IMG/VR virus record: IMGVR_UViG_3300029305_001653
Span: 32,001-96,000 of that record
Length of the DNA stretch: 64,000 bases
Direction: 5' to 3' (one strand)
Source: a virus
Taxonomy: Duplodnaviria; Caudoviricetes
Positions 11,881 through 58,864 of this stretch are shown one piece after another. The notes beneath the pieces were generated by a model, which made no database searches, was not told the DNA's origin, and saw only the letters and a program-made list of their open reading frames with translations. A program made the translations under genes and the position numbers. Positions within the stretch are counted from its first letter, which is position 1. Every line of letters starts with the position of its first letter.

Positions 11881-13386
11881 ATGAAGTTCAATAATAACAA
11901 GACTCTCGCTGAGAGTGTAATTATGAGAGGTCTTGATCTCTCTGAGTCTCGTAGATGGAAAGACTACACAACTGCTATCCGTGAAGGTTACAAGCAGAAG
12001 CACAAGTCTTCTATTCCGGACAATATCATCGCTACTACTGCTACTCTTCTTGAGAATACTTATCAGTATGCAGCTCGTATGGATGAAACAACTAGAGCAG
12101 TAAATCTCGGTACTTTCATCGACTATGGTTTCGATGTTATCTCCGCTACTGTTCCTAACCTTATCGCTCATGATATCGTATCCGTTCAGCCTATGAACGC
12201 TAAGCATGGTGCTATCTTCTATCTCCAGTACCTCTACGGTAACAACAAGGGTACTATCACTGCAGGTACTGAGATGAATTCTCCGTTCACTGGTATCAAT
12301 GGTAACTCCTTCAACTTCTCTAATGACGTAGTTGATGGTGAGTCCATTGGTCTTGGTGATGGTGCTACTACATCTTTCTCTACTACATTAGGTTACACTC
12401 CTGTACGTTCAGGTGCTACTGTAATTTATGTAGGCGGTGTTGAAGTTGCTAGAGTAGTTAGCTCTGCAAATGGTGTAGATACACTCGCAGCAATCGCTGG
12501 TTCTGGTGTATCGGGTACTGTAAACTTAGCTACTGGTGAAATTTCTCTTACTCTTGCAAATGCTCCTGCAGCAGATGCAGCAATCACTGCAGTTTATCGT
12601 TATGATATGGATCTAACTACTGTAGGTTACTCTCAGGTAGATCTTGATCTCGCTTCTATCTCTCTTGAAGCATTCCCGAGAAAGCTTCGTGCTCGTTGGC
12701 TCCTTGATGCTGGCTTCGAACTTCAGAAGATGAAGGGTATCGATGCTGAGTCTGAACTTGTTACTGCTATGAGCAATGAGATCAAGTTTGAAATCGATGG
12801 TGAGCTTCTCAAGGAACTCTATGCTAAGGCTGCTTGGACTGGATTCACTTGGGACTGCCAGATGCCTGGTAATCAGCTTAGCTACATGGAATACAAGCGT
12901 ACTATTATCGATCTCTTTACTGAAATGAGTAATAAGATCTTCACTGGTACAAAGCGTGTAGGTGCAAACTTCATTGTAGCTGGTGTTAATGTATGTAATA
13001 TCATTGAGACACTTCCTGAGTTCTCTGCTGATAACCTTGGTACTAAGTCTATCAATGGTCCTCACAAGATCGGTCGTCTCTCTAACAAGTGGGATGTTTA
13101 CAAGAATCCGTTCTACAATGACAACAACTTCGTACTTGGTTACAAGGGTAGCTCTTGGTTAGATGCTGGTTTCGTATACGCTCCTTACATGCCTCTCTAC
13201 GCTACTCCGACTCAGGTACTTGATGACTTCATCTTCCGTAAGGGTCTTGCTACTTCTTATGGTCAGGTGATGCTCAACAACAAGCTCTATGCTAAGGGTA
13301 GTATTACTAACTTCACTGCATCTCGTATGGTTAGTGATGCACTCACTGTTTCTCCTGCAGAAGGCTCTATCTGGGCTAATGCTTAA
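11881..13386 (+). CDS. Major capsid protein (T4 gp23-like)
   Basis: PNLIAHDIVSVQPM, RKLRARW, ELVTAMSNEIKFEID, GYKG..DAGFVYAPYMPL; high-expression codon bias. Confidence 0.95.
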   Translation: MKFNNNKTLAESVIMRGLDLSESRRWKDYTTAIREGYKQKHKSSIPDNIIATTATLLENTYQYAARMDETTRAVNLGTFIDYGFDVISATVPNLIAHDIVSVQPMNAKHGAIFYLQYLYGNNKGTITAGTEMNSPFTGINGNSFNFSNDVVDGESIGLGDGATTSFSTTLGYTPVRSGATVIYVGGVEVARVVSSANGVDTLAAIAGSGVSGTVNLATGEISLTLANAPAADAAITAVYRYDMDLTTVGYSQVDLDLASISLEAFPRKLRARWLLDAGFELQKMKGIDAESELVTAMSNEIKFEIDGELLKELYAKAAWTGFTWDCQMPGNQLSYMEYKRTIIDLFTEMSNKIFTGTKRVGANFIVAGVNVCNIIETLPEFSADNLGTKSINGPHKIGRLSNKWDVYKNPFYNDNNFVLGYKGSSWLDAGFVYAPYMPLYATPTQVLDDFIFRKGLATSYGQVMLNNKLYAKGSITNFTASRMVSDALTVSPAEGSIWANA

Positions 13387-13414
13387 TCTCTAGAGAATAG
13401 AGTATATACTGAGT

Positions 13415-13442
13415 AAGGGAGGAGGAGGAATCCTCCTCCCTT
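13415..13442 (+). terminator. Terminator after major capsid gene
   Basis: AAGGGAGGAGGA-GGAA-TCCTCCTCCCTT then TATA. Confidence 0.7.
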
Positions 13443-13472
13443 TATACATTTATAGAAAGATGAGGTGATCGT

Positions 13473-14168
13473 ATGCTACTATCTGAATTAGTAGAAGAGA
13501 TTAAAGTCGACTTAGGGTGCGATATAAATTCTTTAGGTATCAGTGATGAGTCTATAGCAAGAAAAGTACATGAAGCACTTAGGAAGATTAGTATATATGC
13601 TCCTTATGTTTGCGTAGAGAACTTTACTGTAGAAGGTAACTCTGTACAATTACCTAAAGATACTACAACTGTAGTCGAAGTACTTAATCTAGATAAACCT
13701 TCTGCTACTAGAGCTAGAGTAGTAGCAGATGACACTGATCTATTCTCTGTGAGTAGGTATTTGTACAACTATAATGATCTTAGTGACCCTTATATCTTCT
13801 TGATGCAAAAGAATGCAGTGAGCACTCTCCAGAATTTTGTAAGACTCACAGATACAAGATTTGAGAAGTCTGAACATAAATTATATCTTAGTAACGTTGA
13901 TGTAAAGAATCTATGTATTAAATATCTCAGGAACTACAGATCAGTAGAAGAAATAGAGGATAATGATGTATTACAGAGAGTGAAAGAGTACGCACTAGCT
14001 TTATGTAAGATAATAGAAGGGAATATCCGTAGAAAATTACAGTCAGCTCCAGGAGCTATTCAGTTAGATGGAGATAGTCTAGTATCTGAAGGCATGGAGG
14101 AGAAACGCAATATAGAGGAAAGACTAGTTTCAGAATTCCAGAACATAAGATTTGGAATTAGATGTTAG
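13473..14168 (+). CDS. Neck/head-tail adaptor (T4 gp13-like)
   Basis: EYALALCK..G.IRRK..GAIQLDGDSLVSEG pattern; position after capsid. Confidence 0.7.
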   Translation: MLLSELVEEIKVDLGCDINSLGISDESIARKVHEALRKISIYAPYVCVENFTVEGNSVQLPKDTTTVVEVLNLDKPSATRARVVADDTDLFSVSRYLYNYNDLSDPYIFLMQKNAVSTLQNFVRLTDTRFEKSEHKLYLSNVDVKNLCIKYLRNYRSVEEIEDNDVLQRVKEYALALCKIIEGNIRRKLQSAPGAIQLDGDSLVSEGMEEKRNIEERLVSEFQNIRFGIRC

Positions 14169-14181
14169 GTGAGAGGTACCT

Positions 14182-14673
14182 ATGGAAAGAAGATTAGATG
14201 AAATTACTCGTAAAGATATGATAAGTGATACGGATTCATGGACTAAAGACAAGGCAAAATTAGTCAAGAGAGCTGTATACTTAGGTATTACTGAGGACTA
14301 TACAGCATTCTTCCGAGTACCTTCTGTCACGGCTGATCCTCCTACTACTTACACTGTGAAGATTAAATTATCTGAGTATCCAGATATAGAAGATTCTGAA
14401 GATCTGGATGTTAGAGAGAAAGTCAGATTAGCTATAGCAGGAGACCTACATATTAGTTGTACTTGTCCTGCTTATTTATATTTCGGATATAAGTACATAC
14501 TTACTCAATTAGATGCTAATGAGTCAGAAGATGAGAATAGATTCCCTAAGATTAGGAATCCTAAATTACAAGGAGTCATGTGTAAACACTGTTATACTGC
14601 AATGAATGCGTTCCCTCTAAACTGGTCTTCTATCGCGAGAGATATCTCTAGCAAGAAGTTCCTTAGGAAGTAG
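14182..14673 (+). CDS. SWIM-type zinc finger protein
   Basis: CTCPAY ... CKH; short leader MERRLDE. Confidence 0.65.
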   Translation: MERRLDEITRKDMISDTDSWTKDKAKLVKRAVYLGITEDYTAFFRVPSVTADPPTTYTVKIKLSEYPDIEDSEDLDVREKVRLAIAGDLHISCTCPAYLYFGYKYILTQLDANESEDENRFPKIRNPKLQGVMCKHCYTAMNAFPLNWSSIARDISSKKFLRK

Positions 14674-14683
14674 GTGAGTAGTT

Positions 14684-15160
14684 GTGGGGTTACAGATCTC
14701 TAAGAAAGAAGTTCTCTACCATCGTAAGCAGATGTATGAAAATATGAAGGTACATGGAATCTCTGCAGTTATTGATTCTATAAAGGATAGTTATCTTGAT
14801 ACTTATGATTTCTATAATGATATCGTAGGAGAAGAAACTTCTTTTGACAGAACTATTAATACATTTATTACATATGAGGAAGTCCCTAGTATAAGAACTC
14901 TTAAGTCTTTAGGGTGGTATGTGGAGACAGAGGAATTCCCTGTAGTAGCTTACATACCTGTACTTTATATTAGAGAAAGTGGAAAACCTGCAGATTTTAG
15001 ACCTGCAGTTGATGATAAAGTAACTTTGGTGTCTAATCCTATAGATGATAATAGTAGTACAAGAAGTTTCCTTATAAAAGATTTTAAAGGTAATGGATTC
15101 CCTAATACTATATATTATACTGTAAAATTAGTACCTTTCAGAGCTGACAACTATGAGTAA
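14684..15160 (+). CDS. Putative head-closure/neck protein (gp14-like)
   Basis: TLKSLGW motif and synteny. Confidence 0.45.
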   Translation: MGLQISKKEVLYHRKQMYENMKVHGISAVIDSIKDSYLDTYDFYNDIVGEETSFDRTINTFITYEEVPSIRTLKSLGWYVETEEFPVVAYIPVLYIRESGKPADFRPAVDDKVTLVSNPIDDNSSTRSFLIKDFKGNGFPNTIYYTVKLVPFRADNYE

Positions 15161-15635
15161 TTTTGATATACGTATAAGTATTAAAAAGTTATCGAACTAT
15201 AGTGCATCATTAGATAATACAGAAGATAAAAAGACTTTATTACTGATGATTAAATCATTCTCTTACTATATCTCCAATCTCTATCTACGACTTATAGAAG
15301 AGAGTATTAATTCTAGGAGATATAACGGAGATTGGGAGCCTGTCGAGGACAAAGAGTATAAGAATTATATAGGTACAGTCCCTACTACAGATATCCTATA
15401 CGTAATAGGAGATGCTCTAGAAGTAGTTAAGATAGGTCACAATTTTGTAGTAAGAGTGAGTCCTAAGTACAAGTATCCAGGGACTAATATCCCTCTAATA
15501 AGAGTACTTAGAGCAATAGAGTACGGGACTTCTAAGTTCAATGCTCGTCCTCTCCTAGCGAAGAATTCTCAGCATATTAATCGTAGGATACTAGATTTGT
15601 GGAGAGGTTATTTGATGATGAAGGGAGTGATCTAG
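15153..15635 (+). CDS. Putative neck/tail completion protein (HK97 gp10-like motif)
   Basis: AIEYGTSKFNARPL. Confidence 0.5.
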   Translation: MSNFDIRISIKKLSNYSASLDNTEDKKTLLLMIKSFSYYISNLYLRLIEESINSRRYNGDWEPVEDKEYKNYIGTVPTTDILYVIGDALEVVKIGHNFVVRVSPKYKYPGTNIPLIRVLRAIEYGTSKFNARPLLAKNSQHINRRILDLWRGYLMMKGVI

Positions 15636-39649: not shown

Positions 39650-41521
39650 ATGGCTGAAATGATTGATGCTCTAGATAACATAAAGGTTATTAGTGCTACA
39701 CTCCCAAAAGGTCGTATGAAAGGTGATGTTGACGGCGACGGAGTCATCGCAGAAAATGATTATAAGTTGATTCTGCAAGCAATATCTGGCACAACATCTC
39801 TTGATGATATACAAAACTGGTGTGGTGATGTCGATAATAGTGGCAAGGCAGATAGTAGTGACTCTGTACTACTAATGAACGTCGTAGCTGGGAGAGAGAC
39901 TGTTCTGACATCTGTTCCAACTATGGCTGATTATTATGGTAATTGGACATGGGTTAAAATAGATGACTTAAGTGGATATTTCTATTACGATATCCCTGTT
40001 GCGACAGCGACTATAGGTTCAACAGCAGCATTAGCAACATCAGATGATGCAGATATGTTTATTGACTTTGAGTGTAGAGATGGCTCTATAAGAGTATATG
40101 CTAAAAGATTACCTCTTGAATCCACTGAGATTTCCATCTCAGTGGATTCAGAGCCTACTAATAAGACCTCTACACTAATAGGTAATCAATATTCTAACAA
40201 TAGAGTATACAGAGGTATTAGACATTACGATCATCTCCCTATAACTAGTGAAGATATCCACGAATATGCAGATACAGTTTATATGAAAACAGCTTATATC
40301 ATGAATAACATATTAGGCTGTGGTATCTTAAATACTCCTTCTATCACTACATCAGGTGATGGTATCAGTCTCAGTGAACCTGCTGTATTGCTCGTAAATG
40401 GTGATGTATCTTTGATACAGTCTGATGATAATACTCCTCTCGTATCTAAGTCTGCTATTGCTACTGCTAATCACTCCTCAGGTACTGTATGTATTGTAGG
40501 ATGGTATCAGCATCTATTAGCTACTAGTAAAATGAGAAATTATGGAGGGGTCTATAACTCGATAATCCCTAATACTCTCTTAGATAATGAACTCAATATA
40601 CAACTATCTACTAGATATCAATTTAGATGGATGCCTGTACTAATAGCTACAGAGTCTATATCTAGTGATACTATAACCTTTGATATAGAAAGTCTTAGAG
40701 AAGATGGTAGTAGTACAGGAGATGTACATACTATAATAGCTAAGAAAGATGAAAGTATCTTTAAAGCTTCTGCTCCTTCTTCTATGACGTATTCCCTGTC
40801 AGGACTCTATGTAATACCTCTACTGAAGTATTCATATTCTAGTAGTTCAGGTACTATTACAGGTACTTCTCCTTACTTACCTGTGAAACCTAAAGGAGGA
40901 TCCTCAGGTTTCATTAAAAGTGACTCCGAGCCTATAGGAGATTATGCTGAAGGTACTACATGGTATAATCCATTAACTAGAGAGTTCAAGACTTACGTAG
41001 AAGGTGTAGGATTCGTTGATAGTGCCTCTACTATGGGATTCTTACAATATCAGTCTGTATATACTGTACCTAATACAATTTATGAAGAACAAGATATTGT
41101 TGTCCCCATTGAGATAAGTGAACTACAAGAAGGAGATATCTTACAAGTAGTTTATGAAGGACTAGTATTGTCCTTAGGAGAACACTATACAGTAGATTAT
41201 AGGAATAATACAGTAAAGTTATTAGGATTTACTGTGAATGCAGGAGAGAAGATAACCTTCACAGCGACTAAGATAGTAGAAGCTAGTGACATTACAAATG
41301 TCACTCTCACATTCACTAGTCATATGGCTACTACGAGCTCTAGTACTGTAGAGGGACATGTTAAATTATCCGACTATGCTGACGACTTATTGACTGTAGA
41401 TGATGGAGTTGCTGCAACTCCAAAAGCGGTCTATCAGTCTCGATTAATCAAAGATAATACTAATAATATAAATTATAAATTTGGGGTAGAGAATGGATTA
41501 CTCTATCTAGAGGAGGTGTAG
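39650..41521 (+). CDS. Tail/fibre protein with N-terminal dockerin-like domain
   Basis: GDVDGDGVIAENDYKLIL and GDVDNSGKADSSDSVLLM paired Ca-binding repeats; C-terminal GHVKLSD..AATPKAV fibre motif. Confidence 0.75.
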   Translation: MAEMIDALDNIKVISATLPKGRMKGDVDGDGVIAENDYKLILQAISGTTSLDDIQNWCGDVDNSGKADSSDSVLLMNVVAGRETVLTSVPTMADYYGNWTWVKIDDLSGYFYYDIPVATATIGSTAALATSDDADMFIDFECRDGSIRVYAKRLPLESTEISISVDSEPTNKTSTLIGNQYSNNRVYRGIRHYDHLPITSEDIHEYADTVYMKTAYIMNNILGCGILNTPSITTSGDGISLSEPAVLLVNGDVSLIQSDDNTPLVSKSAIATANHSSGTVCIVGWYQHLLATSKMRNYGGVYNSIIPNTLLDNELNIQLSTRYQFRWMPVLIATESISSDTITFDIESLREDGSSTGDVHTIIAKKDESIFKASAPSSMTYSLSGLYVIPLLKYSYSSSSGTITGTSPYLPVKPKGGSSGFIKSDSEPIGDYAEGTTWYNPLTREFKTYVEGVGFVDSASTMGFLQYQSVYTVPNTIYEEQDIVVPIEISELQEGDILQVVYEGLVLSLGEHYTVDYRNNTVKLLGFTVNAGEKITFTATKIVEASDITNVTLTFTSHMATTSSSTVEGHVKLSDYADDLLTVDDGVAATPKAVYQSRLIKDNTNNINYKFGVENGLLYLEEV

Positions 41522-51979: not shown

Positions 51980-52585
51980 ATGAATAACAACATTGACTGG
52001 AAAGAGATAGAAGATAAAATAGCTATCATCTGTTACAAATTTAGTAACTTATCTTCATACCATGAAGATTTAGCACAAGAGCTTAGAATCCACGCCTACT
52101 ATGTCTCAGATAATTATTATGACTTGTATCGTAAAGCTATAGACTTCTGGAGAAAGTTACAATCTAGACAGTCTCCTGAAGTTCCTTACTTTGATTTAGA
52201 ACTTTTAGGAGGTTCCTATTCCATGGAGAAAGAAGCTACAGATCAGTTTAACGATATAGTATTTCTTATCCGTAAGGAATTAAATAGATTTCCTCAGAGT
52301 AAGTGGGATAGTAATAAGATAGACGTAGCTACGAAACTTTTAGATATCATCTTAGAAGATATAGACCCTAAGAAGGTAGAAGGTAATTCTGATATAGTAG
52401 GAGATTCTAATCTTAACCACTATATCAATCATAGACTAAATTTATCATGGGTTTCTGAAGAGACAGGTATCGGATATAAACAGATAGTTATGGCTATGAA
52501 ACTCTTAGAAGATATAGTTAGAGGATTACATGCTATGAAGAAGATAGAGATTCCTTTAGAGTATTTCCAGGGATACTACGAATAA
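51980..52585 (+). CDS. Divergent sigma-70-like factor (region 2 and region 4-like HTH)
   Basis: HEDLAQEL..RKAIDFWRK (region 2-like); LSWVSEETGIGYKQIVMAMKLL (HTH). Confidence 0.55.
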   Translation: MNNNIDWKEIEDKIAIICYKFSNLSSYHEDLAQELRIHAYYVSDNYYDLYRKAIDFWRKLQSRQSPEVPYFDLELLGGSYSMEKEATDQFNDIVFLIRKELNRFPQSKWDSNKIDVATKLLDIILEDIDPKKVEGNSDIVGDSNLNHYINHRLNLSWVSEETGIGYKQIVMAMKLLEDIVRGLHAMKKIEIPLEYFQGYYE

Positions 52586-52607: not shown

Positions 52608-52642
52608 AATAAGAGCTCCTAGACGATCTAGGAGCTCTTATT
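52608..52642. terminator. Bidirectional terminator between convergent genes
   Basis: AATAAGAGCTCCTAGA-CGA-TCTAGGAGCTCTTATT. Confidence 0.8.
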
Positions 52643-52717: not shown

Positions 52718-53797
52718 TCAAGTCTCATTCACTACAGTGTCAATATGATTTACGATAGTCTCGTAATGAGACAAGATATTCTCCTCTACTAAATCATACA
52801 AGGTACTTACTCTCTCTAATCTTTCTTCTTCTGACAAACTTCCTAATATATCAGGTAGATCCTTATAATTAGTCTTACTTACTCTTATAGCAGAGTTGAA
52901 TCCTAACCAGTCAGGTGTAGATTCTTGACAAAGTACAGGTAGACATCCTTCTCTGATAGCTTCCATAGTAGCTATCTCTACTCTAGGTTGATGATTACGT
53001 AATCCCATATTCCTCATCAAGAATAAGAAATTCCAATGGTACTTGACATCTTCTAATAATCTAGGTACTTGACTAGGCTCAAAATATCCTAAATCATGAT
53101 AAGACTCTGTAGGTAATTCTTCCATCTTTAAATTATACCAGTAACTCTGATGAGATCCTGCAGCATACACTTCTATACCATTCTTTACAAAATCATCAGA
53201 CATAGACAAGTACTCATAAATCCTTTTTGCTGTAGTCCATCTGCAGGTAGACATAATCTTATTACTCTTCTTCTTAGCTTTCTCTAGTATCTTCTCTTTA
53301 GGAGGTAATAAAGGACTGAAGCTAACATACTCCCAATCTCCACAGATATCAATATAGTCATCGAAGCAGTCTGCCATACCAGGACAATTGAACATAACAA
53401 ATGTCATATTAGGATGATTAAGAAAATTCATGTGATAAGGGTAAAGTTTCCTATCATTCTCCTCATGACATATGAATGTAAACTTCTTAGTATGGTTCAA
53501 TACATCTATATACTTATCAGGAGTAGCTTCATTATACTTTTCGTAAGTCAGACCTGGGGAAGAGAATATTACGAAATCATAATTAGAGAGTATCGAAGGA
53601 TTAGAGTGATACTCTACAGCTTCAGCTAAAGGAGACTTGTAGTTCTTATTATCACGTAATGTAATTAAATCTACATCTTTTATGTATCTACGTAATTGAT
53701 CTGCTAGGTAAATAGGAGCAGAAGAAGCTCCACCTACTTCTCCAGGACCAAATCCATTGTGAAATGTACATATACAAACTTTAAAATTATCTCTCAT
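52718..53797 (-). CDS. GT-B glycosyltransferase, T4 DNA alpha-glucosyltransferase-like
   Basis: N-terminal Gly loop, YDFVIFSS, ICHEE, RWTTAK, EIATMEA..GCLPVL line up with my recollection of T4 Agt motifs (RTTTWK; EYTHLE..GTIPVF). Confidence 0.75.
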   Translation of the reverse strand: MRDNFKVCICTFHNGFGPGEVGGASSAPIYLADQLRRYIKDVDLITLRDNKNYKSPLAEAVEYHSNPSILSNYDFVIFSSPGLTYEKYNEATPDKYIDVLNHTKKFTFICHEENDRKLYPYHMNFLNHPNMTFVMFNCPGMADCFDDYIDICGDWEYVSFSPLLPPKEKILEKAKKKSNKIMSTCRWTTAKRIYEYLSMSDDFVKNGIEVYAAGSHQSYWYNLKMEELPTESYHDLGYFEPSQVPRLLEDVKYHWNFLFLMRNMGLRNHQPRVEIATMEAIREGCLPVLCQESTPDWLGFNSAIRVSKTNYKDLPDILGSLSEEERLERVSTLYDLVEENILSHYETIVNHIDTVVNET

Positions 53798-53807
53798 ACT
53801 CTACTCC

Positions 53808-54095
53808 TTAATACTTTGCTATATAGTATTCAGCATACTCCGTGAGATCTATACCTTCTATTACTGCTCTAGCTTCTAAGATTGCTAGATAATCTGCCAT
53901 AGCTCTAACTTGAATATTGTAAGTGCTACGAGGACATGTAGGCTTAAATCCTATGATCTCTTCTCCTCCGAAATCCCACTTACTCAGTAGATCTCTTAAT
54001 TTATTATATCTTATAGCTAATTGTAAGTATTCAGATTTAAATCTTTCTTTATAATCTGAACTTGTCATCATAGAAATAGTATCTTTCAATTCCAT
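53808..54095 (-). CDS. Conserved small phage protein (crAss001_48-like)
   Basis: MMTSSDYKERFK.EY.QL.IRY.KL, PTCP, Q..AM..YL.ILE.RA.IEGI. Confidence 0.7.
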   Translation of the reverse strand: MELKDTISMMTSSDYKERFKSEYLQLAIRYNKLRDLLSKWDFGGEEIIGFKPTCPRSTYNIQVRAMADYLAILEARAVIEGIDLTEYAEYYIAKY

Positions 54096-54097
54096 AA

Positions 54098-55174
54098 TTA
54101 ATTATCCTTTCCATCTAAATATTTTATACAGAGATAACCATCTTCATCTACATAAGCCATATCAGGTAGTTTCCAGGAAGGGTTATACTTCATACGATCA
54201 GAGTATTTATAATTAGACCTTAACTCAACTGTACGATTCTCCTCATCATATCCTAGTACATTATTAGGAGTAAGAGTAATCTTACCTATCTGAGTCATGA
54301 GAGCTAATATAGGCTTACTCCTACCTGTCACATGTCCTGAATTCACTAGAGATTCGTAACAGTCTATCATCTTTGATACTGAAGGTCTTAGATGATGAGT
54401 ACCTTTCATAGGTACTGCATGGAATAGATAATGAGCTTCTATTCCTCTCATTCTCATAGAGTGATATAGTTCAATGAGTTGCTTAGGAGTATCATTTACT
54501 CCCTTTAAGAAAACATTTTGAGAGTAGATAGTGATACCTATACTCTGTAATCTCTTTATTACATTATCTACATCTTCATCGAATTCAAGATGTGAATTTA
54601 TTTGAGTAGCTACTTCTACTCTCTTGACTTTACTATATCTGCTAAGAACAGAATATATCTTCTCTGAGATGGTCTTAGGAGACTGAGTAATCATCCTAGT
54701 AGCTATACGATAAATTTGTACATTAGGAGCTATATCATAGAGATAGCCTAAGAATTTACTAAGAGCCTTGATATTAGTAAATGGATCTCCTCCAGTAATC
54801 AATATCTCCTCGAATCCTTCATCTCTGCAGTACTCAGCTATAGCTATCAGATTATCGTCAGTAAGTCTATAATGATCTTCATAATTACTCCTCAAACAGT
54901 ATCTACAGTTAGAAGCACATCCCCAAGCTATCTCCACACATCCATGTCTTCGATATAACCTTTCAAGATTCTTTATAGAGTCTCCTTCACAATCTGCTTC
55001 ATAGTGTCTATTATTCACTTCATCAGTGACTATATCCTCTTCTTCCCTATATACGTACTGATTATATATAGACAAGTACTCCTCAGAATCTTTACCATAT
55101 GTTTCTTCAAGAAAAGATAATTTATCTTTTAAGTGTTTACTTATCACTTGTCTGAATTCTTCTCTTCTACTCAA
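54098..55174 (-). CDS. KamA-family radical SAM/PLP 2,3-aminomutase-like enzyme
   Basis: LERLY, CASNCRYCLR, EILITGGDP, RIATR, QNVFLKGVND, YLFH, GK (PLP lysine position). Confidence 0.88.
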   Translation of the reverse strand: MSRREEFRQVISKHLKDKLSFLEETYGKDSEEYLSIYNQYVYREEEDIVTDEVNNRHYEADCEGDSIKNLERLYRRHGCVEIAWGCASNCRYCLRSNYEDHYRLTDDNLIAIAEYCRDEGFEEILITGGDPFTNIKALSKFLGYLYDIAPNVQIYRIATRMITQSPKTISEKIYSVLSRYSKVKRVEVATQINSHLEFDEDVDNVIKRLQSIGITIYSQNVFLKGVNDTPKQLIELYHSMRMRGIEAHYLFHAVPMKGTHHLRPSVSKMIDCYESLVNSGHVTGRSKPILALMTQIGKITLTPNNVLGYDEENRTVELRSNYKYSDRMKYNPSWKLPDMAYVDEDGYLCIKYLDGKDN

Positions 55175-56286
55175 TCTATATTCCTCCTAACTGACCTAAT
55201 TTTGCCTGTATTCGAAACTTCAATTAAACCGAATTTTACAGGAATATTCAGAGATAATTTATTACGTATCTCTACTCTGATATAGTCTACTATTTCCTCA
55301 TTATGGATATAATCTACACTGCTAATTATTAACTCTGCGTACTCAATAGGATCTTCTCTAGAGACACGTAACTGACTGATAAGATCAGGACATCCATAGA
55401 GTAATCCAGCCTCTGCTACGATGTCTCTAATAGTATTAGGATAAACATTTAATCCTCTTATGACTAACATTTCATCTGATCTTCCTAATATATTGAATCT
55501 AAAGTTAGGTCCATCAGACAGAACTTCTACGATATCTCCTACATTGTAGTTGATACGATTAATAAGTCCTCCCTCATATGTAGTAGTGATGAGTAACTCT
55601 CCTACTAAACCCTTTTTAGGAGGTAGAATCTGATCTCCTACTTTAATACTAGCAAAAGCAATATCATCTGCTAAGAATTGAAGACTATCTCTAGTATAAT
55701 AATTCTCAGAAGCTAACATTGAGATACTATCAGCAGAGCCATAATTAGCATTCAAAGCTTCAATACCCCACTCTTCCTCAATATTTTTCCTAAAATTAGG
55801 ATTCTGGATACCACTTTCTCCTCCGAAAAATCCATACTTGAGTCCAAGATTCCTAGGACTCATATTAAATTCATCCTTGAGAACTTCTTTAATTTTGTAC
55901 ATATAAGAAGGAGTACAAGAGATACCTTCAATATTATAGTACATGATAGTATTAATCAATTCTTTAGTGTTACCTACTCCGTAAGGAAATACAGCAGCTC
56001 CTGCTTTCATAAGACTAGTACAGTCTACGAATCCTCCAGACCACATCTGGAAATTAAGGCAGTGTATTATCCTCATACCTGGACGAACTCCTGCATTAAT
56101 GAAGCATCTAGCTCCTACATCAGTAATCTTCTCGAAATCTATCTTGTTCATAGCTATAGACAAAGGAACTCCTGATGTAGAACCTGAGGTTCTCACTACT
56201 AAATTAATATCTCTTTCTTTTACTTCAGAAACTCCTAAATGATTAGTAGACTGAAAAGATAGTAAATCTGACTTATAAGTAATCAT
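55171..56286 (-). CDS. Phenylacetate-CoA ligase-like adenylate-forming enzyme
   Basis: TSGSTSG, CTPSY, GGE, NYG, GD, GRSDEMLVIRGLNVYP, TGKIR. Confidence 0.85.
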   Translation of the reverse strand: MITYKSDLLSFQSTNHLGVSEVKERDINLVVRTSGSTSGVPLSIAMNKIDFEKITDVGARCFINAGVRPGMRIIHCLNFQMWSGGFVDCTSLMKAGAAVFPYGVGNTKELINTIMYYNIEGISCTPSYMYKIKEVLKDEFNMSPRNLGLKYGFFGGESGIQNPNFRKNIEEEWGIEALNANYGSADSISMLASENYYTRDSLQFLADDIAFASIKVGDQILPPKKGLVGELLITTTYEGGLINRINYNVGDIVEVLSDGPNFRFNILGRSDEMLVIRGLNVYPNTIRDIVAEAGLLYGCPDLISQLRVSREDPIEYAELIISSVDYIHNEEIVDYIRVEIRNKLSLNIPVKFGLIEVSNTGKIRSVRRNID

Positions 56287-57128
56287 TAGATTAAACCTCC
56301 TTCATCGAATATCTTTTTATGATCTATGATATGAGCAGGATTACCTACTACAACACTATTGTCAGGTATATCTCTTATAACTACAGCTCCCATACCTATT
56401 GAAACGTTCTTACCAATCTTTATTCCATTACGTATTTTAGCTCCTATACCTATCACTGTATGGTCACCTATCACTGTACTACCTCCTATGATAGTACCTG
56501 CAGCTATGATACAAGACTTACCTATAATACAATTATGACCTATCTGACACCCAAAATCAATTTGAGTATTATCTCCTATTTTAGTATAATTGAATGTTCC
56601 TCTACCTACCATAGTATTGTATTTGATTACTACATTATTTCCTATCAAGACTCCTCCTAATTGAGGAAATTGTACTATAGTCTCTGCATCATACCCTAGG
56701 ACAGGACTAAAATCAATACCTCCTAATATGACTCCATGATCTATCCAGCAGTTACGTCCTATAATAATTTCTTTACAGTAAATATTAGGTAGATATCTAA
56801 GATAGTCAGATTTAGACAGATTATCTGTATGAATCCTTTGAAGTCTAGAGAGCAATTCAAATTTAGATACAACAAGACAAAATGTAAATTTAGGATTCTT
56901 TACTCTAATGAAATCATTTCTTTTAGACTGGAGTTCAGGATAAGATTCATTTATGAGATAAACACAGTGCTCACTATTGTCTAATCTTTCTAGATTAATG
57001 TCAGGTTTATTTATGAACATCAAAGTATTGTAATTAACGTCTAAAGAGTCTACTTGTATGATGTTGAATTCTTTATCTGAGGGACTCAGTGATAGAAAGC
57101 TTCGTATATCATTATTAGTTACACTCAT
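56286..57128 (-). CDS. LpxD-like hexapeptide-repeat N-acyltransferase
   Basis: VKNPKFTF, FPQLGGVLIGNNV, QIGHNCIIG, IGMGAVVIRDIP..VVGNPA. Confidence 0.85.
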   Translation of the reverse strand: MSVTNNDIRSFLSLSPSDKEFNIIQVDSLDVNYNTLMFINKPDINLERLDNSEHCVYLINESYPELQSKRNDFIRVKNPKFTFCLVVSKFELLSRLQRIHTDNLSKSDYLRYLPNIYCKEIIIGRNCWIDHGVILGGIDFSPVLGYDAETIVQFPQLGGVLIGNNVVIKYNTMVGRGTFNYTKIGDNTQIDFGCQIGHNCIIGKSCIIAAGTIIGGSTVIGDHTVIGIGAKIRNGIKIGKNVSIGMGAVVIRDIPDNSVVVGNPAHIIDHKKIFDEGGLI

Positions 57129-57129
57129 A

Positions 57130-57834
57130 CTAAAAATCCTCCGTTACAATAGTCATAGGATAAAATGCCTCTGCGTAATCTCTACCTATTTCAGTACCTC
57201 TTACTTTAGCGAGTGTAATTATGGAAGAGATATCTAGAATATCTCTCGGATCTCTGACTAATTGAGATCTATATTCAGATAAAGCTAATTTCTTCTTCTC
57301 AATATCTTCAGCTGAGAGTGGTACATAAAGCTTACTATTAGGGCTCAAGTTACTACTCCAAGTATTCACGTAAGGGTACTCATACATAGCTTTCAGCTGT
57401 ATATAATTAGTATCTACTGTAGGACGTAGTGCAGCAACACTAGCTTGGAATACTGCTTGATGATCTTGGTGATGACTACTATAAGGGAAAAGAACTGCTG
57501 TAGGTCTAAACTCTCTAATCACTTTGTCTAACTGAGTTACTAAAGATTTCTTGTCTACCTGGTCTAGCTTTCCGTCTATAAATCCTTTTAATTGGATTAG
57601 ACTTATACAGCCTTTACGAAATCCTAATCTCCATAGAGCATTTACAGTCTCTGATATTCTTTCCTCATTAGAAACTACTCTACCTACATTGTAATTATGT
57701 ACATTAGAATGAGTAGCTACTAGTACTACCATAACTTTATTCTCAGTATCAGTAGCTAGCTTGCTCATCAAACCTCCGCATCCGATAGTTTCATCATCAC
57801 AGTGAGGAGTGATGATTAAAGTACGTTTGAACAT
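57130..57834 (-). CDS. PIG-L/LmbE family N-deacetylase
   Basis: PHCDDETIGCGG, R..E, DG, HHQDH, Y.SQ, YAEAF. Confidence 0.9.
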   Translation of the reverse strand: MFKRTLIITPHCDDETIGCGGLMSKLATDTENKVMVVLVATHSNVHNYNVGRVVSNEERISETVNALWRLGFRKGCISLIQLKGFIDGKLDQVDKKSLVTQLDKVIREFRPTAVLFPYSSHHQDHQAVFQASVAALRPTVDTNYIQLKAMYEYPYVNTWSSNLSPNSKLYVPLSAEDIEKKKLALSEYRSQLVRDPRDILDISSIITLAKVRGTEIGRDYAEAFYPMTIVTEDF

Positions 57835-57846
57835 GAGTACCTCCTC

Positions 57847-58506
57847 TTATATCATAGAATGTCCATAGATATTTAAAGAGTTCATAATCTCTTTATTTTC
57901 AGATAAAGTGTCTTTCATAGACTTGATAGCTCCTCTTACTACAGTAGACAAATAATGATTTACAGGGATAGTAAAATAATCAATCTTATACTCCTTCAAG
58001 TACTGGAGAACTTCATGAGCTACCCTTAACATATAATAATTGTGTAATAAAGAGACTTCTTTTATCACTTTATTAGCTACTACTAAAGTATCTACAAGCT
58101 TCAATATCAATCCTTCAGGTTCTTCCTTAGCATCTCTCCACAATTCATAGTGGAGTTCACTATTACTGAATTGAGACTTGAAGAACTTCTTAGCTACACT
58201 ATCAGCTACATCTTTTAAAGATTCTCTAGTACCTTCACTGTAATACTTGACAGGTCTAGGAATATCTCCTGTAATGACTTCCTCTAAATCGTGATAAACT
58301 GCTTTCATAACATACTTACTAGATTGTATGTATTCGAAGCCTGCAATTTTATTCACTTCATCGATTATCTTTAATCCTAACATTACAGTATCTATAATGT
58401 GTTGAGATAAAGATTCTGCCTCTACTAGCTTAGTACCACTATATCTGTAAGTATGGTCTAAGTTCATGAGAGGACTGGATACTAGTTCTAAAAATTTATT
58501 GTCCAT
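57847..58506 (-). CDS. HD-domain (YfbR-like) deoxynucleotide phosphohydrolase
   Basis: RYS..ESLSQH, HDLEEVITGDIP.PVK, KLVD. Confidence 0.85.
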   Translation of the reverse strand: MDNKFLELVSSPLMNLDHTYRYSGTKLVEAESLSQHIIDTVMLGLKIIDEVNKIAGFEYIQSSKYVMKAVYHDLEEVITGDIPRPVKYYSEGTRESLKDVADSVAKKFFKSQFSNSELHYELWRDAKEEPEGLILKLVDTLVVANKVIKEVSLLHNYYMLRVAHEVLQYLKEYKIDYFTIPVNHYLSTVVRGAIKSMKDTLSENKEIMNSLNIYGHSMI

Positions 58507-58563
58507 TTAACGTCTCCTCCTTGCCCTTATCTTCTAAAATAAGAAACGTGACATATCTTATTA

Positions 58564-58781
58564 TTGAGCTACTTTTATGATTTTATGCAAAAGTAGCTCA
58601 ACGTTAGAGTTTCTTACGTTGCTTAGCATGTAAGCTTTTAAGCTTACAAGGCTGCGGAGCAGCAAGCAACTACGTAAGATGGAGGAGCTATATTATTATA
58701 ATAATTAACATTATTATAATAATCACTTATAATGCTTAGCATGTAAGCTTAAGAAAAATGAAATCTGAGAGATTTCATTTT
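58564..58781. other. Highly structured divergent intergenic region (multiple inverted and direct repeats)
   Basis: 13-bp IR 58564-58601, branched fold 58613-58678, two ATTATTATAATAAT palindromes, 18-bp direct repeat, hairpin 58755-58781. Confidence 0.65.
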
Positions 58782-58799
58782 ATATCTGAAGAGTAGAAA

Positions 58800-58838
58800 A
58801 GGGATTCTTGAAGATATCACGTATTATAATAATGTAAA
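58800..58838 (+). promoter_or_regulatory. Conserved bipartite phage promoter, copy 5
   Basis: AGGGATT-N12-ACGTATTATAATAATGTAAA. Confidence 0.85.
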
Positions 58839-58864
58839 AGAAAATTAAATAGGGAGAGTGTATC

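Follow-up and report, generated by a model that had tools for sequence, protein, structure and literature searches.

A candidate phage operon for attaching an aminoacylated amino sugar to DNA

T4 alpha-glucosyltransferase (a-gt, CAZy family GT72) glucosylates 5-hydroxymethylcytosine (5hmC) in DNA, and in the synthesis of bacillithiol and mycothiol a GT4 glycosyltransferase (BshA/MshA) is followed by a PIG-L deacetylase (BshB/MshB) and then by an amino acid ligase (BshC/MshC). Phages known to glycosylate hydroxylated pyrimidines of their DNA include the T-even phages, Bacillus phage SP-15 and RB69/DLP3 (PMC13326640), and TET-linked glycosyltransferases do likewise. In SP-15 the modified base is 5-(4',5'-dihydroxypentyl)uracil (DHPU), which carries glucose and phosphoglucuronolactone and is linked to gene block 146-155 (PMC5977210); YerA41 and Carin-5 are related phages with modified thymine (PMC12686479, PMC13697223), and a deacetylase in the sugar block of Carin-5 hints at amino sugars on phage DNA (PMC12686479). 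Pathways of thymidine hypermodification have also been described for phages M6, ViI and PaMx11 (Lee et al. 2018, 2022; PMC5889632, PMC8989533). Here we analyzed a stretch of 64,000 nucleotides (the window), comprising bases 32001-96000 of the 112,222-bp phage record IMGVR_UViG_3300029305_001653 (Caudoviricetes), and within it a minus-strand operon of seven open reading frames (ORFs) at 52718-58506, encoding an HD-domain 5'-deoxynucleotidase, a PIG-L family deacetylase, an LpxD-like acyltransferase, a PaaK-like ligase, a KamA-family radical S-adenosylmethionine (rSAM) aminomutase, a small protein of the Sequestin family and a glycosyltransferase (GT). We propose that this operon makes an N-acylated amino sugar and places it on the DNA of the phage.

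Likeness to SP-15 is evident in several respects: 1) about 31 colinear genes of the structural and replication modules are common to the phage, SP-15 and Listeria phage LIS04 in a proteome comparison (22-43% identity); 2) the phage has a GT homologous to SP15_153 (33%), an HD hydrolase, a nucleoside 2-deoxyribosyltransferase-like (NDT-like) protein, a fusion of uracil-DNA glycosylase (UDG) with PolA and a dUTPase-family protein; 3) GC-only palindromes are purged from its genome. A divergent ThyX is found in both the phage and LIS04. Judged from its predicted proteins, the phage is a distant SP-15-like large myovirus. In contrast to SP-15, its genome is half the size, and only the GT and HD genes of the operon are common to SP-15 and LIS04. 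The latter two decorate their bases with glucose and glucuronate by means of UDP-glucose dehydrogenase, UGPase, a TagF-like phosphotransferase and GT1 enzymes, whereas PIG-L, LpxD-like, PaaK-like and KamA-like genes are found here instead. No phage protein matched the SP-15/LIS04 regions that harbor the UDP-glucose dehydrogenase, UGPase and TagF-like genes, and these families were unseen among the proteins scanned with Pfam, which were a subset of the ORFs.

The other systems are alike in part. With T4 a-gt the GT shares the GT-B fold, the best structural match and profile homology, but identity is only about 12-17%, and the substrates would differ: an N-acyl hexosamine presumably takes the place of glucose as donor, and probably a uracil derivative that of 5hmC as acceptor. 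The logic of bacillithiol and mycothiol, namely N-acetylglucosamine (GlcNAc) transfer, deacetylation and acylation of the amine with an amino acid, is recognizable here; however, scores for those enzymes stayed under the equivalog cut-offs, the ligase is of the PaaK type, an LpxD-like acyltransferase and an aminomutase are added, and the genes lie in the context of phage replication genes. As in M6, ViI and PaMx11, amino-acid-derived groups would be placed on a C5-substituted uracil by combinatorial cassettes that include radical SAM enzymes and acetyltransferases, but those phages attach the amino acid directly to the base by way of 5-hydroxymethyluracil DNA kinase (5-HMUDK) and aGPT-Pplase, both not found here; their radical SAM enzyme is SPL-like and not KamA-like, and no sugar takes part. 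Similar in gene content is an uncharacterized bacterial surface-glycan module, exemplified by Calditrichales MX18-03 and by a 467-kb metagenome contig, in which the same three to four genes adjoin (26-55% identity) with invariant specificity residues; that module is accompanied by Wzy, a flippase and a priming transferase, and is without an Agt-like GT, HD or Sequestin gene.

A literature search, with most subscription journals outside it, yielded no description of this gene set or of a beta-aminoacyl amino sugar on DNA. An earlier reading of the locus, made from the DNA letters alone (the sequence-only reading), knew of no described phage modification with this chemistry, which appears to hold for the beta-amino acid branch and less so for the amino sugar, given the hint in Carin-5. 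In the literature searched, two things appear undescribed: a functional assignment for SP15_153, and a DNA glycosyltransferase joined with a KamA-type aminomutase, a PaaK-like ligase and an LpxD-like N-acyltransferase. We consider it highly likely that the operon produces an N-acylated amino sugar and passes it on to an acceptor, and likely that this acceptor is phage DNA, and we favor a beta-amino acid as the acyl group; to the pathway as a whole, each step of which is conditional, we assign roughly even odds (about 0.5).

The glycosyltransferase

The GT had no match in Pfam, NCBIfam or PHROG. An AlphaFold (AF2) model built on 21 relatives showed a GT-B fold of two Rossmann domains (mean predicted local distance difference test, pLDDT, 89), the top Foldseek match of which was 1y6f, the T4 alpha-glucosyltransferase with DNA (E 6.5e-12, TM score 0.70). 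VIA-align likewise placed the T4 enzyme at the top (Z 25.5, root-mean-square deviation 3.6 A, 335 residues aligned), followed by BshA (Z 23.1), with TarM, GtfA and SdgB also matching at Z 19-20. BLAST of the GT left T4 a-gt undetected, while alignment of the family profile with a-gt by hhalign gave 91% probability (E 1.1e-6, 298 columns), and hidden Markov models (HMMs) of the family, run over the 222 long ORFs of T4, ranked a-gt and b-gt within the top three, with a-gt at rank 2. The glycosyltransferase call of the sequence-only reading is thus borne out by the predicted structure and by hhalign, and its question of T4 Agt versus cell-wall GT4 enzymes is answered in favor of Agt by both structural aligners, by the profile comparison and by the presence of relatives in phage DNA-modification contexts. 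On this basis we propose that the GT is a remote homologue of T4 alpha-glucosyltransferase and a DNA glycosyltransferase, which would act on a flipped-out hydroxylated base in duplex DNA.

Among 50,697 phage records searched by tblastn, homologues of the GT were found only in SP15_153 (32.7% identity over 97% of the query) and in one unannotated, syntenic ORF of LIS04 (36%). SP15_153 lies among genes 146-155 of SP-15, the block to which Kropinski et al. (2018; PMC5977210) attributed the glycosylation of DHPU. The family amounts to 89 clusters among 1.84 billion representative proteins, and for the 10 distant clusters looked up the source contigs were all at most 63 kb. Some distant members adjoin genes for 5-hydroxymethyluracil (hmU) DNA kinase, a thymidylate-synthase-like protein (Thymidylat_synt), TAGT, dCMP deaminase, dUTPase, PolA and dNMP-kinase-like proteins, and others are located between PolA, a P-loop kinase and an HD hydrolase. 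GT-fusion proteins and several neighbors of the distant homologues had no informative Pfam domains, the exception being one such protein with a DUF1599 ("nucleotide modification associated") tail. It is mainly this phage DNA-modification gene context on which our belief in DNA as the acceptor of the GT is based.

The acyl module and its bacterial relatives

All enzyme matches to curated equivalogs fell below cut-off, so we regard the operon enzymes as divergent members of their families and not as the named enzymes. The family calls of the sequence-only reading (HD, PIG-L, LpxD-like, PaaK-like and KamA) agreed with the Pfam and NCBIfam matches. The PIG-L protein reached 68.6 bits with its Pfam family (cut-off 28.2) and its translation carries the metal motifs PHCDDE and HHQDH; its best NCBIfam match was BshB1 (58 bits, under the cut-off of 182). 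We propose that it frees the 2-amine of GlcNAc, acting on the UDP-sugar before transfer or on the sugar once transferred. In a profile alignment, the acyltransferase matched E. coli LpxD (3eh0) over the N-terminal domain (residues 4-135, E 5e-8) as well as the left-handed beta-helix (LbH; 129-295, E 6e-47), with an invariant catalytic His-Asn pair (H198/N199) and an AF2 model of pLDDT 93.9. With 121.5 bits it missed the NCBIfam LpxD cut-off of 207, and it ends about 15 residues past the LbH (280 vs. 341 residues), without the C-terminal helices that bind acyl carrier protein (ACP). By these comparisons it is not LpxD proper. Because the uridine-binding N-terminal domain is kept and the ACP helices are gone, these features point to a UDP-amino-sugar acceptor and a non-ACP donor. 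Tailoring on the UDP-sugar before transfer, as the sequence-only reading had it, fits the LpxD-type uridine-binding domain.

The ligase scored 113.6 bits against NCBIfam PaaK (cut-off 646), is about 75 N-terminal residues shorter than PaaK and aligned with the PaaK structure 2y4o at E 3.6e-23; from its sequence it can be named an adenylate-forming enzyme of the PaaK-like clade only, and we propose that it activates a beta-amino acid as a CoA thioester or adenylate. The aminomutase falls in a divergent subfamily, with 116.4 bits against TIGR00238 under a cut-off of 199.2. Compared with 2a5h, it retains the CX3CX2C cluster motif (C86/C90/C93), R95 (equivalent to R134, which binds the alpha-carboxylate) and K298 (equivalent to K337, which binds pyridoxal phosphate, PLP), but the lysine-binding residues D293 and D330 are replaced by V254 and M293. 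The cluster, PLP, arginine and M293 residues are invariant in 18 phage and bacterial members of the family. As judged from these residues, its substrate is a free amino acid, in a pocket that is neither of the lysine nor of the glutamate type. Beta-lysine as the acyl group was ruled out because both lysine-binding aspartates of the aminomutase are replaced.

Two bacterial surface-polysaccharide loci harbor rSAM homologues (47-55% identity) beside homologues of the ligase (39-48%) and of the acyltransferase, one of them with a PIG-L homologue as well; the surrounding genes encode EpsG, Wzy, a MurJ-type flippase, Bac_transf, PglD and DegT. In 64 bacterial loci, each with an rSAM homologue at 33% identity or more, we counted neighbors within about 0.5-4.5 kb. 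A ligase homologue (35-48% identity, 1-3 kb away) was present in 29/64 loci, an acyltransferase in 25/64 and PIG-L in 7/64, while the Agt-like GT, HD and Sequestin were found in 0/64. That deacetylase, N-acyltransferase, ligase and aminomutase form one module for N-acylation of an amino sugar, as the sequence-only reading supposed, is consistent with the adjoining of the same genes in these glycan loci. Taken at face value, the bacterial module implies a hitherto undescribed beta-aminoacylated sugar in bacterial glycans, and we surmise that the phage most likely joined an acyl module of bacterial surface polysaccharides to a DNA glycosyltransferase. This conserved bacterial module spans Desulfobacterota, Calditrichota, Omnitrophota, Bacillota, Planctomycetota and further phyla. 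The rSAM subfamily has another branch, in Streptomyces, Dongia and others, that is without ligase, acyltransferase or PIG-L neighbors.

In two variant cassettes of related phages (L035 and L037), HD, PIG-L and GT are kept, with HD adjoining PIG-L, and a WbqC-family protein and a methyltransferase stand in place of the acyl trio. The PIG-L copies are 66% identical in L035 and 50% identical in L037. A conserved deacetylase beside swappable tailoring enzymes points to the free 2-amine of the hexosamine as the likely point of diversification.

The acceptor base, the proposed pathway and its rivals

The sequence-only reading had supposed a hydroxymethylated base as acceptor, which we take as 5hmC, with its hydroxymethylase outside the window. 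No PF00303 protein (ThyA-type hydroxymethylase), TET/JBP or dCMP deaminase was found in the whole genome, nor any 5-HMUDK, aGPT-Pplase or signal of a C5-cytosine methyltransferase; the routes by 5-HMUDK/aGPT-Pplase, TET/JBP, ThyA-type hydroxymethylase and dCMP deaminase were rejected on that ground. Of the dCMP/dUMP hydroxymethylases expected, the ThyA type is thus missing and a divergent ThyX is present beyond the window, clustered with kinase-like genes and the UDG-PolA fusion. The ThyX-like protein (PF02511, 46.9 bits) has RGR instead of RHR and a C-terminal extension, falls in virus-dominated ESM Atlas clusters and had LIS04_124 as its sole match in phage records (43% identity), with canonical ThyX reached only at E 0.02. 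The fusion combines PF03167, PF01612 and PF00476, and its polymerase domain is 34-41% identical to those of LIS04 and SP-15; phages that modify T in their genomes characteristically encode thymidylate-synthase homologues and such UDG-PolA fusions (PMC13697223, PMC12686479). Elsewhere in the genome are a dUTPase-family protein, a third P-loop kinase and an anaerobic ribonucleotide reductase. The NDT-like protein, 31-34% identical to its LIS04/SP-15 counterparts and 38% to the L037 copy, has an extra C-terminal domain of about 165 residues, and its gene adjoins the divergent ThyX in LIS04; it is a possible accessory of a modified-nucleotide pathway. The HD protein (67 bits with its Pfam family, cut-off 25.9; phrog_7076) has homologues of 35-38% identity in the replication modules of SP-15 and LIS04 and probably removes a canonical deoxynucleotide, for which we propose dTMP or dTTP. 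The phrog name, "dATP triphosphohydrolase", would suggest a PurZ/Z-genome; this was ruled out, there being no adenylosuccinate-synthetase homologue.

Independent of gene content, we compared whole genomes for the GC-only 4-bp palindromes CCGG, CGCG, GCGC and GGCC. In the phage, 8 were observed vs. 58.9 expected (observed/expected ratio, O/E, 0.14; Poisson P ~1e-16), compared with an O/E of 0.92 for AT-containing palindromes and 0.95 for GC-only non-palindromes. The ratio for the GC-only palindromes was 0.11 in T-modified SP-15, 0.46 in LIS04 (modification not reported), 0.35 in SPO1 (hmU), 0.56 in EF24C (no known modification) and 1.03 in C-modified T4; this signal is uncalibrated, and we take it as supportive of, but not decisive for, a thymine-type modification. 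The purge concerns sites beyond the protection of a modified thymine, so that C and G of the phage DNA probably carry no modification. Together, the missing ThyA-type hydroxymethylase and TET, the presence of ThyX, kinases and UDG-PolA, and the purge of GC-only palindromes favor a modified uracil, so that the acceptor is probably a C5-substituted uracil of SP-15 type rather than 5hmC.

Based on these data, we postulate the following pathway. The base precursor would be made by genes outside the operon: a dUTPase-family enzyme would supply dUMP, the divergent ThyX-fold enzyme would add a hydroxylated carbon substituent at C5 to give C5-hydroxyalkyl-dUMP, P-loop kinases would raise this to the triphosphate, and UDG-PolA would build it into DNA as a partial or complete substitute for thymine, with the HD 5'-deoxynucleotidase depleting the competing canonical nucleotide. 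On the sugar side, PIG-L would remove the acetyl group from host UDP-GlcNAc to give UDP-glucosamine, the KamA-type aminomutase would convert a neutral alpha-amino acid to its beta-isomer, the PaaK-like ligase would activate the latter, most likely as a CoA thioester, and the LpxD-like enzyme would place the beta-aminoacyl group on the 2-amine of the sugar while still on UDP. The Agt/SP15_153-like GT would finally move the N-(beta-aminoacyl)hexosamine onto the hydroxyl of the modified-uracil side chain in duplex DNA. The major groove would thereby acquire a bulky adduct, probably bearing a free amine, as a barrier to restriction and possibly to further defenses that target DNA. Of the single DNA-modification route drawn in the sequence-only reading, the coherent module and the Agt-like GT are retained, while 5hmC gives way to a modified uracil as the probable acceptor and the small protein is left out. 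The most specific form of the proposal, in which a C5-hydroxyalkyl-uracil made by a ThyX-fold enzyme replaces thymine in part or in full and is O-glycosylated with a beta-aminoacyl hexosamine to yield a cationic base, the acyl module having come from bacterial surface-glycan loci, is tentative, and we would put it short of an even chance.

Several observations weigh against the proposed pathway. All operon functions rest on remote homology under curated equivalog cut-offs, and the phage is known from metagenomes only. The GT is only 2.4 Z units nearer to T4 AGT than to BshA, a GlcNAc transferase for a small molecule, and its pI of 5.3 (family about 5), like the acidity of the operon proteins in general, gives no hint of DNA binding. 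The bacterial homologues of the acyl module belong to the synthesis of surface glycans, not to DNA. With respect to the base, no similarity was detectable between the ThyX-like protein and the proteins of SP-15, including the divergent ThyX of SP-15 itself (gp130), and to our knowledge no ThyX-fold hydroxymethylase has been shown so far; GATC, which contains T, is still depleted in the phage (O/E 0.55), and unmodified EF24C and hmU-containing SPO1 also avoid some GC-only sites. Lastly, the substrates of characterized PIG-L enzymes are mostly GlcNAc glycosides from an earlier GT step and not UDP-GlcNAc, which renders the order of steps uncertain.

This preference of PIG-L enzymes would suit a different order toward the same product, in which the GT puts GlcNAc on the DNA base, PIG-L deacetylates it there and the ligase, the LpxD-like enzyme or both aminoacylate it after replication. 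Such an order would follow the mycothiol/bacillithiol sequence of GT, PIG-L deacetylase and ligase, with BshA as the second structural match of the GT and BshB1 as the best NCBIfam match of the deacetylase, and known thymidine hypermodifications are indeed sculpted post-replication, including by a radical SAM enzyme (PMC8989533). We nevertheless consider it unlikely: the acyltransferase retains the LpxD-type uridine-binding domain, its bacterial relatives are found in UDP-sugar loci (e.g., beside a WbpA/B/E/D-like set in bacterial locus L042), and the aminomutase retains the arginine that binds a free alpha-carboxylate. An acceptor of 5hmC, as in T-even phages, would agree with the closest solved relative of the GT, T4 AGT, which acts on 5hmC; given a genome without PF00303 dCMP hydroxymethylase, TET/JBP or C5-cytosine methyltransferase signal, GC-only palindromes strongly purged, as they are not in C-modified T4, and the modification of thymine in the nearest cultured relatives (PMC5977210, PMC13697223), we find this very unlikely.

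The origin of the acyl module in surface-polysaccharide loci keeps alive another rival, namely that the N-(beta-aminoacyl)hexosamine is destined for a glycoconjugate of host or phage (e.g., wall teichoic acid, cell-wall polysaccharide, an S-layer protein or a virion protein) and serves in superinfection exclusion or virion decoration. The clustering of rSAM, ligase, acyltransferase and PIG-L homologues with bacterial Wzy, flippase, EpsG, Bac_transf, PglD and DegT genes speaks for it, as does a GT fold that is common to TarM, GtfA and SdgB. The GT, HD and Sequestin genes, however, are those that the bacterial loci lack; the GT family members looked up occur only on phage-sized contigs, beside nucleotide- and DNA-modification genes; the operon is without a gene for a lipid-carrier transferase, flippase or polymerase; and its first gene encodes a deoxynucleotidase, with baseplate genes on one side of the operon and topoisomerase genes on the other, in a myovirus that groups with SP-15 and LIS04, which are lytic phages (PMC12160530). 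We therefore judge a target other than DNA to be improbable. More improbable still would be a soluble product, either a glycoside resembling bacillithiol or mycothiol or a compound of aminoglycoside or streptothricin type bearing a beta-amino acid amide. The parallel with BshA/BshB/BshC and MshA/MshB/MshC is formal, with BshA and BshB1 as near-best matches, and streptothricin does offer the precedent of a beta-amino acid amide on an amino sugar, but no acceptor-forming or export gene is present, the relatives of the GT lie in DNA-modification contexts and the HD deoxynucleotidase is co-transcribed.

If the proposed modification of DNA is true, it would be without precedent as an aminoacylated amino sugar on DNA, and a KamA-type aminomutase and an LpxD-type acyltransferase would for the first time be seen to serve in the modification of nucleic acid. 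The phage would exemplify DNA armor that arose when a sugar-tailoring module of capsule or O-antigen type was linked to a conserved DNA glycosyltransferase. SP-15 has been a model of DNA hypermodification for 50 years, and its unannotated gene SP15_153 would gain a proposed function, and the long viral ThyX variants would become candidates for the enzyme that starts base synthesis of the SP-15 type. Such DNA would withstand restriction enzymes and perhaps the nucleases of CRISPR, and its share in sequencing data may be too low; the enzymes of the operon could serve for site-selective cationic labeling of DNA. The palindrome test suggests a cheap means, using sequence only, to tell which base a phage protects.

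Operon layout, genome and accompanying genes

The seven ORFs lie, all on the minus strand, exactly where the sequence-only reading had placed them (Table 1). The intergenic spacings of 12, 1, -1, -4, 2 and 10 nt agree with the shared base at 56286 and the gaps of 1-12 nt that it reported; its ATGA overlap at 55171-55174 has to be corrected, since the coding strand reads TTGA, composed of the TTG start of the aminomutase and the TGA stop of the ligase. Each of the seven starts is preceded by a GGAGG-type ribosome-binding site. The hairpin downstream is positioned between the end of the operon and a convergent gene (51980-52585). In the divergent region 5' of the operon (58507-58864), we noticed an 18-nt direct repeat, AAGCTTACATGCTAAGCA, present twice about 113 nt apart, and a hairpin with an 11-bp stem in the leader, immediately 5' of the ribosome-binding site of the HD gene; repeat and hairpin may be an operator or leader structure. 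A sigma-70 promoter scan of the operon region gave no signal above shuffles.

Table 1. Features of the operon, its flanks and the nucleotide genes (window positions unless stated otherwise)
Feature	Position	Strand	Evidence
HD-domain YfbR-like 5'-deoxynucleotidase, 219 aa, operon gene 1	57847..58506	-	PF12917
PIG-L family N-deacetylase, 234 aa	57130..57834	-	PF02585
LpxD-like left-handed beta-helix N-acyltransferase, 280 aa	56286..57128	-	profile alignment to LpxD 3eh0
PaaK-like adenylate-forming ligase, 371 aa	55171..56286	-	NCBIfam PaaK, PDB 2y4o
KamA-family radical SAM/PLP amino acid 2,3-aminomutase, 358 aa, TTG start	54098..55174	-	TIGR00238, 2a5h alignment
Sequestin-family small protein, 95 aa	53808..54095	-	PF21825
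GT-B retaining-type glycosyltransferase, 359 aa	52718..53797	-	predicted structure, hhalign
Palindromic hairpin, 16-bp stem, likely bidirectional terminator	52608..52642	.	terminator scan
Divergent intergenic region 5' of operon	58507..58864	-	18-nt direct repeat and hairpin, read by eye
NDT-like protein, 284 aa	62900..63754	+	PF05014, 68.6 bits
Divergent ThyX (370 aa), two P-loop kinase-like genes and 997-aa UDG-exonuclease-PolA fusion	genome 99907-105342 (window-equivalent 67907-73342)		Pfam

The operon is the sole sizeable minus-strand run in the 112-kb genome, nearly all other genes being on the plus strand, and its GC and GC at third codon positions (GC3) are the same as in the remainder of the genome. 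In variant cassette L037, the HD...GT block is co-stranded with the topoisomerase genes; here it is inverted relative to them. The source listing gives the record as linear and 69% complete; as the first 100 bases are repeated at the start of its last 164 bases and relatives assemble to 112-122 kb, the genome is very probably complete at about 112 kb, the contig having probably been assembled as a circle.

When the operon and 24 kb of the window were compared as DNA with 50,697 phage records, no relatives emerged, and a search for related loci among viral contigs with rSAM or GT alignment likewise found nothing. The synteny expected by the sequence-only reading is nonetheless evident from proteins: a 122-kb related contig, from a relative that is 68% identical, carries six of the seven genes in the order and with the flanks seen here, Sequestin being the one missing, and the GT, rSAM and acyltransferase genes recur at 52-79% identity in about 20-35 related contigs.

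The small conserved protein of the sequence-only reading does belong to a conserved family (PF21825, 60.8 bits, cut-off 24.8); its place in the pathway was not upheld. Members of this Sequestin family are phage sponges that bind 3'cADPR (3' cyclic ADP-ribose) and defeat type I Thoeris (bioRxiv 10.1101/2025.07.12.664507). Residues R18, E22, Q62 and R76 are spaced, as judged by eye, like R8, E12, Q47 and R61 of SequestinA, and the protein is probably a 3'cADPR sponge against type I Thoeris. As the 68%-identical relative has the same cluster but for this gene, we read it as a likely anti-defense passenger and not a pathway component, the cassette presumably doubling as an anti-defense island. A Sequestin copy is found in variant cassette L035, and an Acb4-family gene (PF13876) occupies a similar place in L037.

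As for the host, a tail-region protein of 623 residues (39650-41521) contains a type I dockerin domain (PF00404), and the anaerobic ribonucleotide reductase is encoded at 13366-15210 of the genome. The host probably belongs to the anaerobic Gram-positive bacteria, and the dockerin and reductase, together with SigH/Spo0A-like genes, point to a cellulosome-bearing clostridial host.

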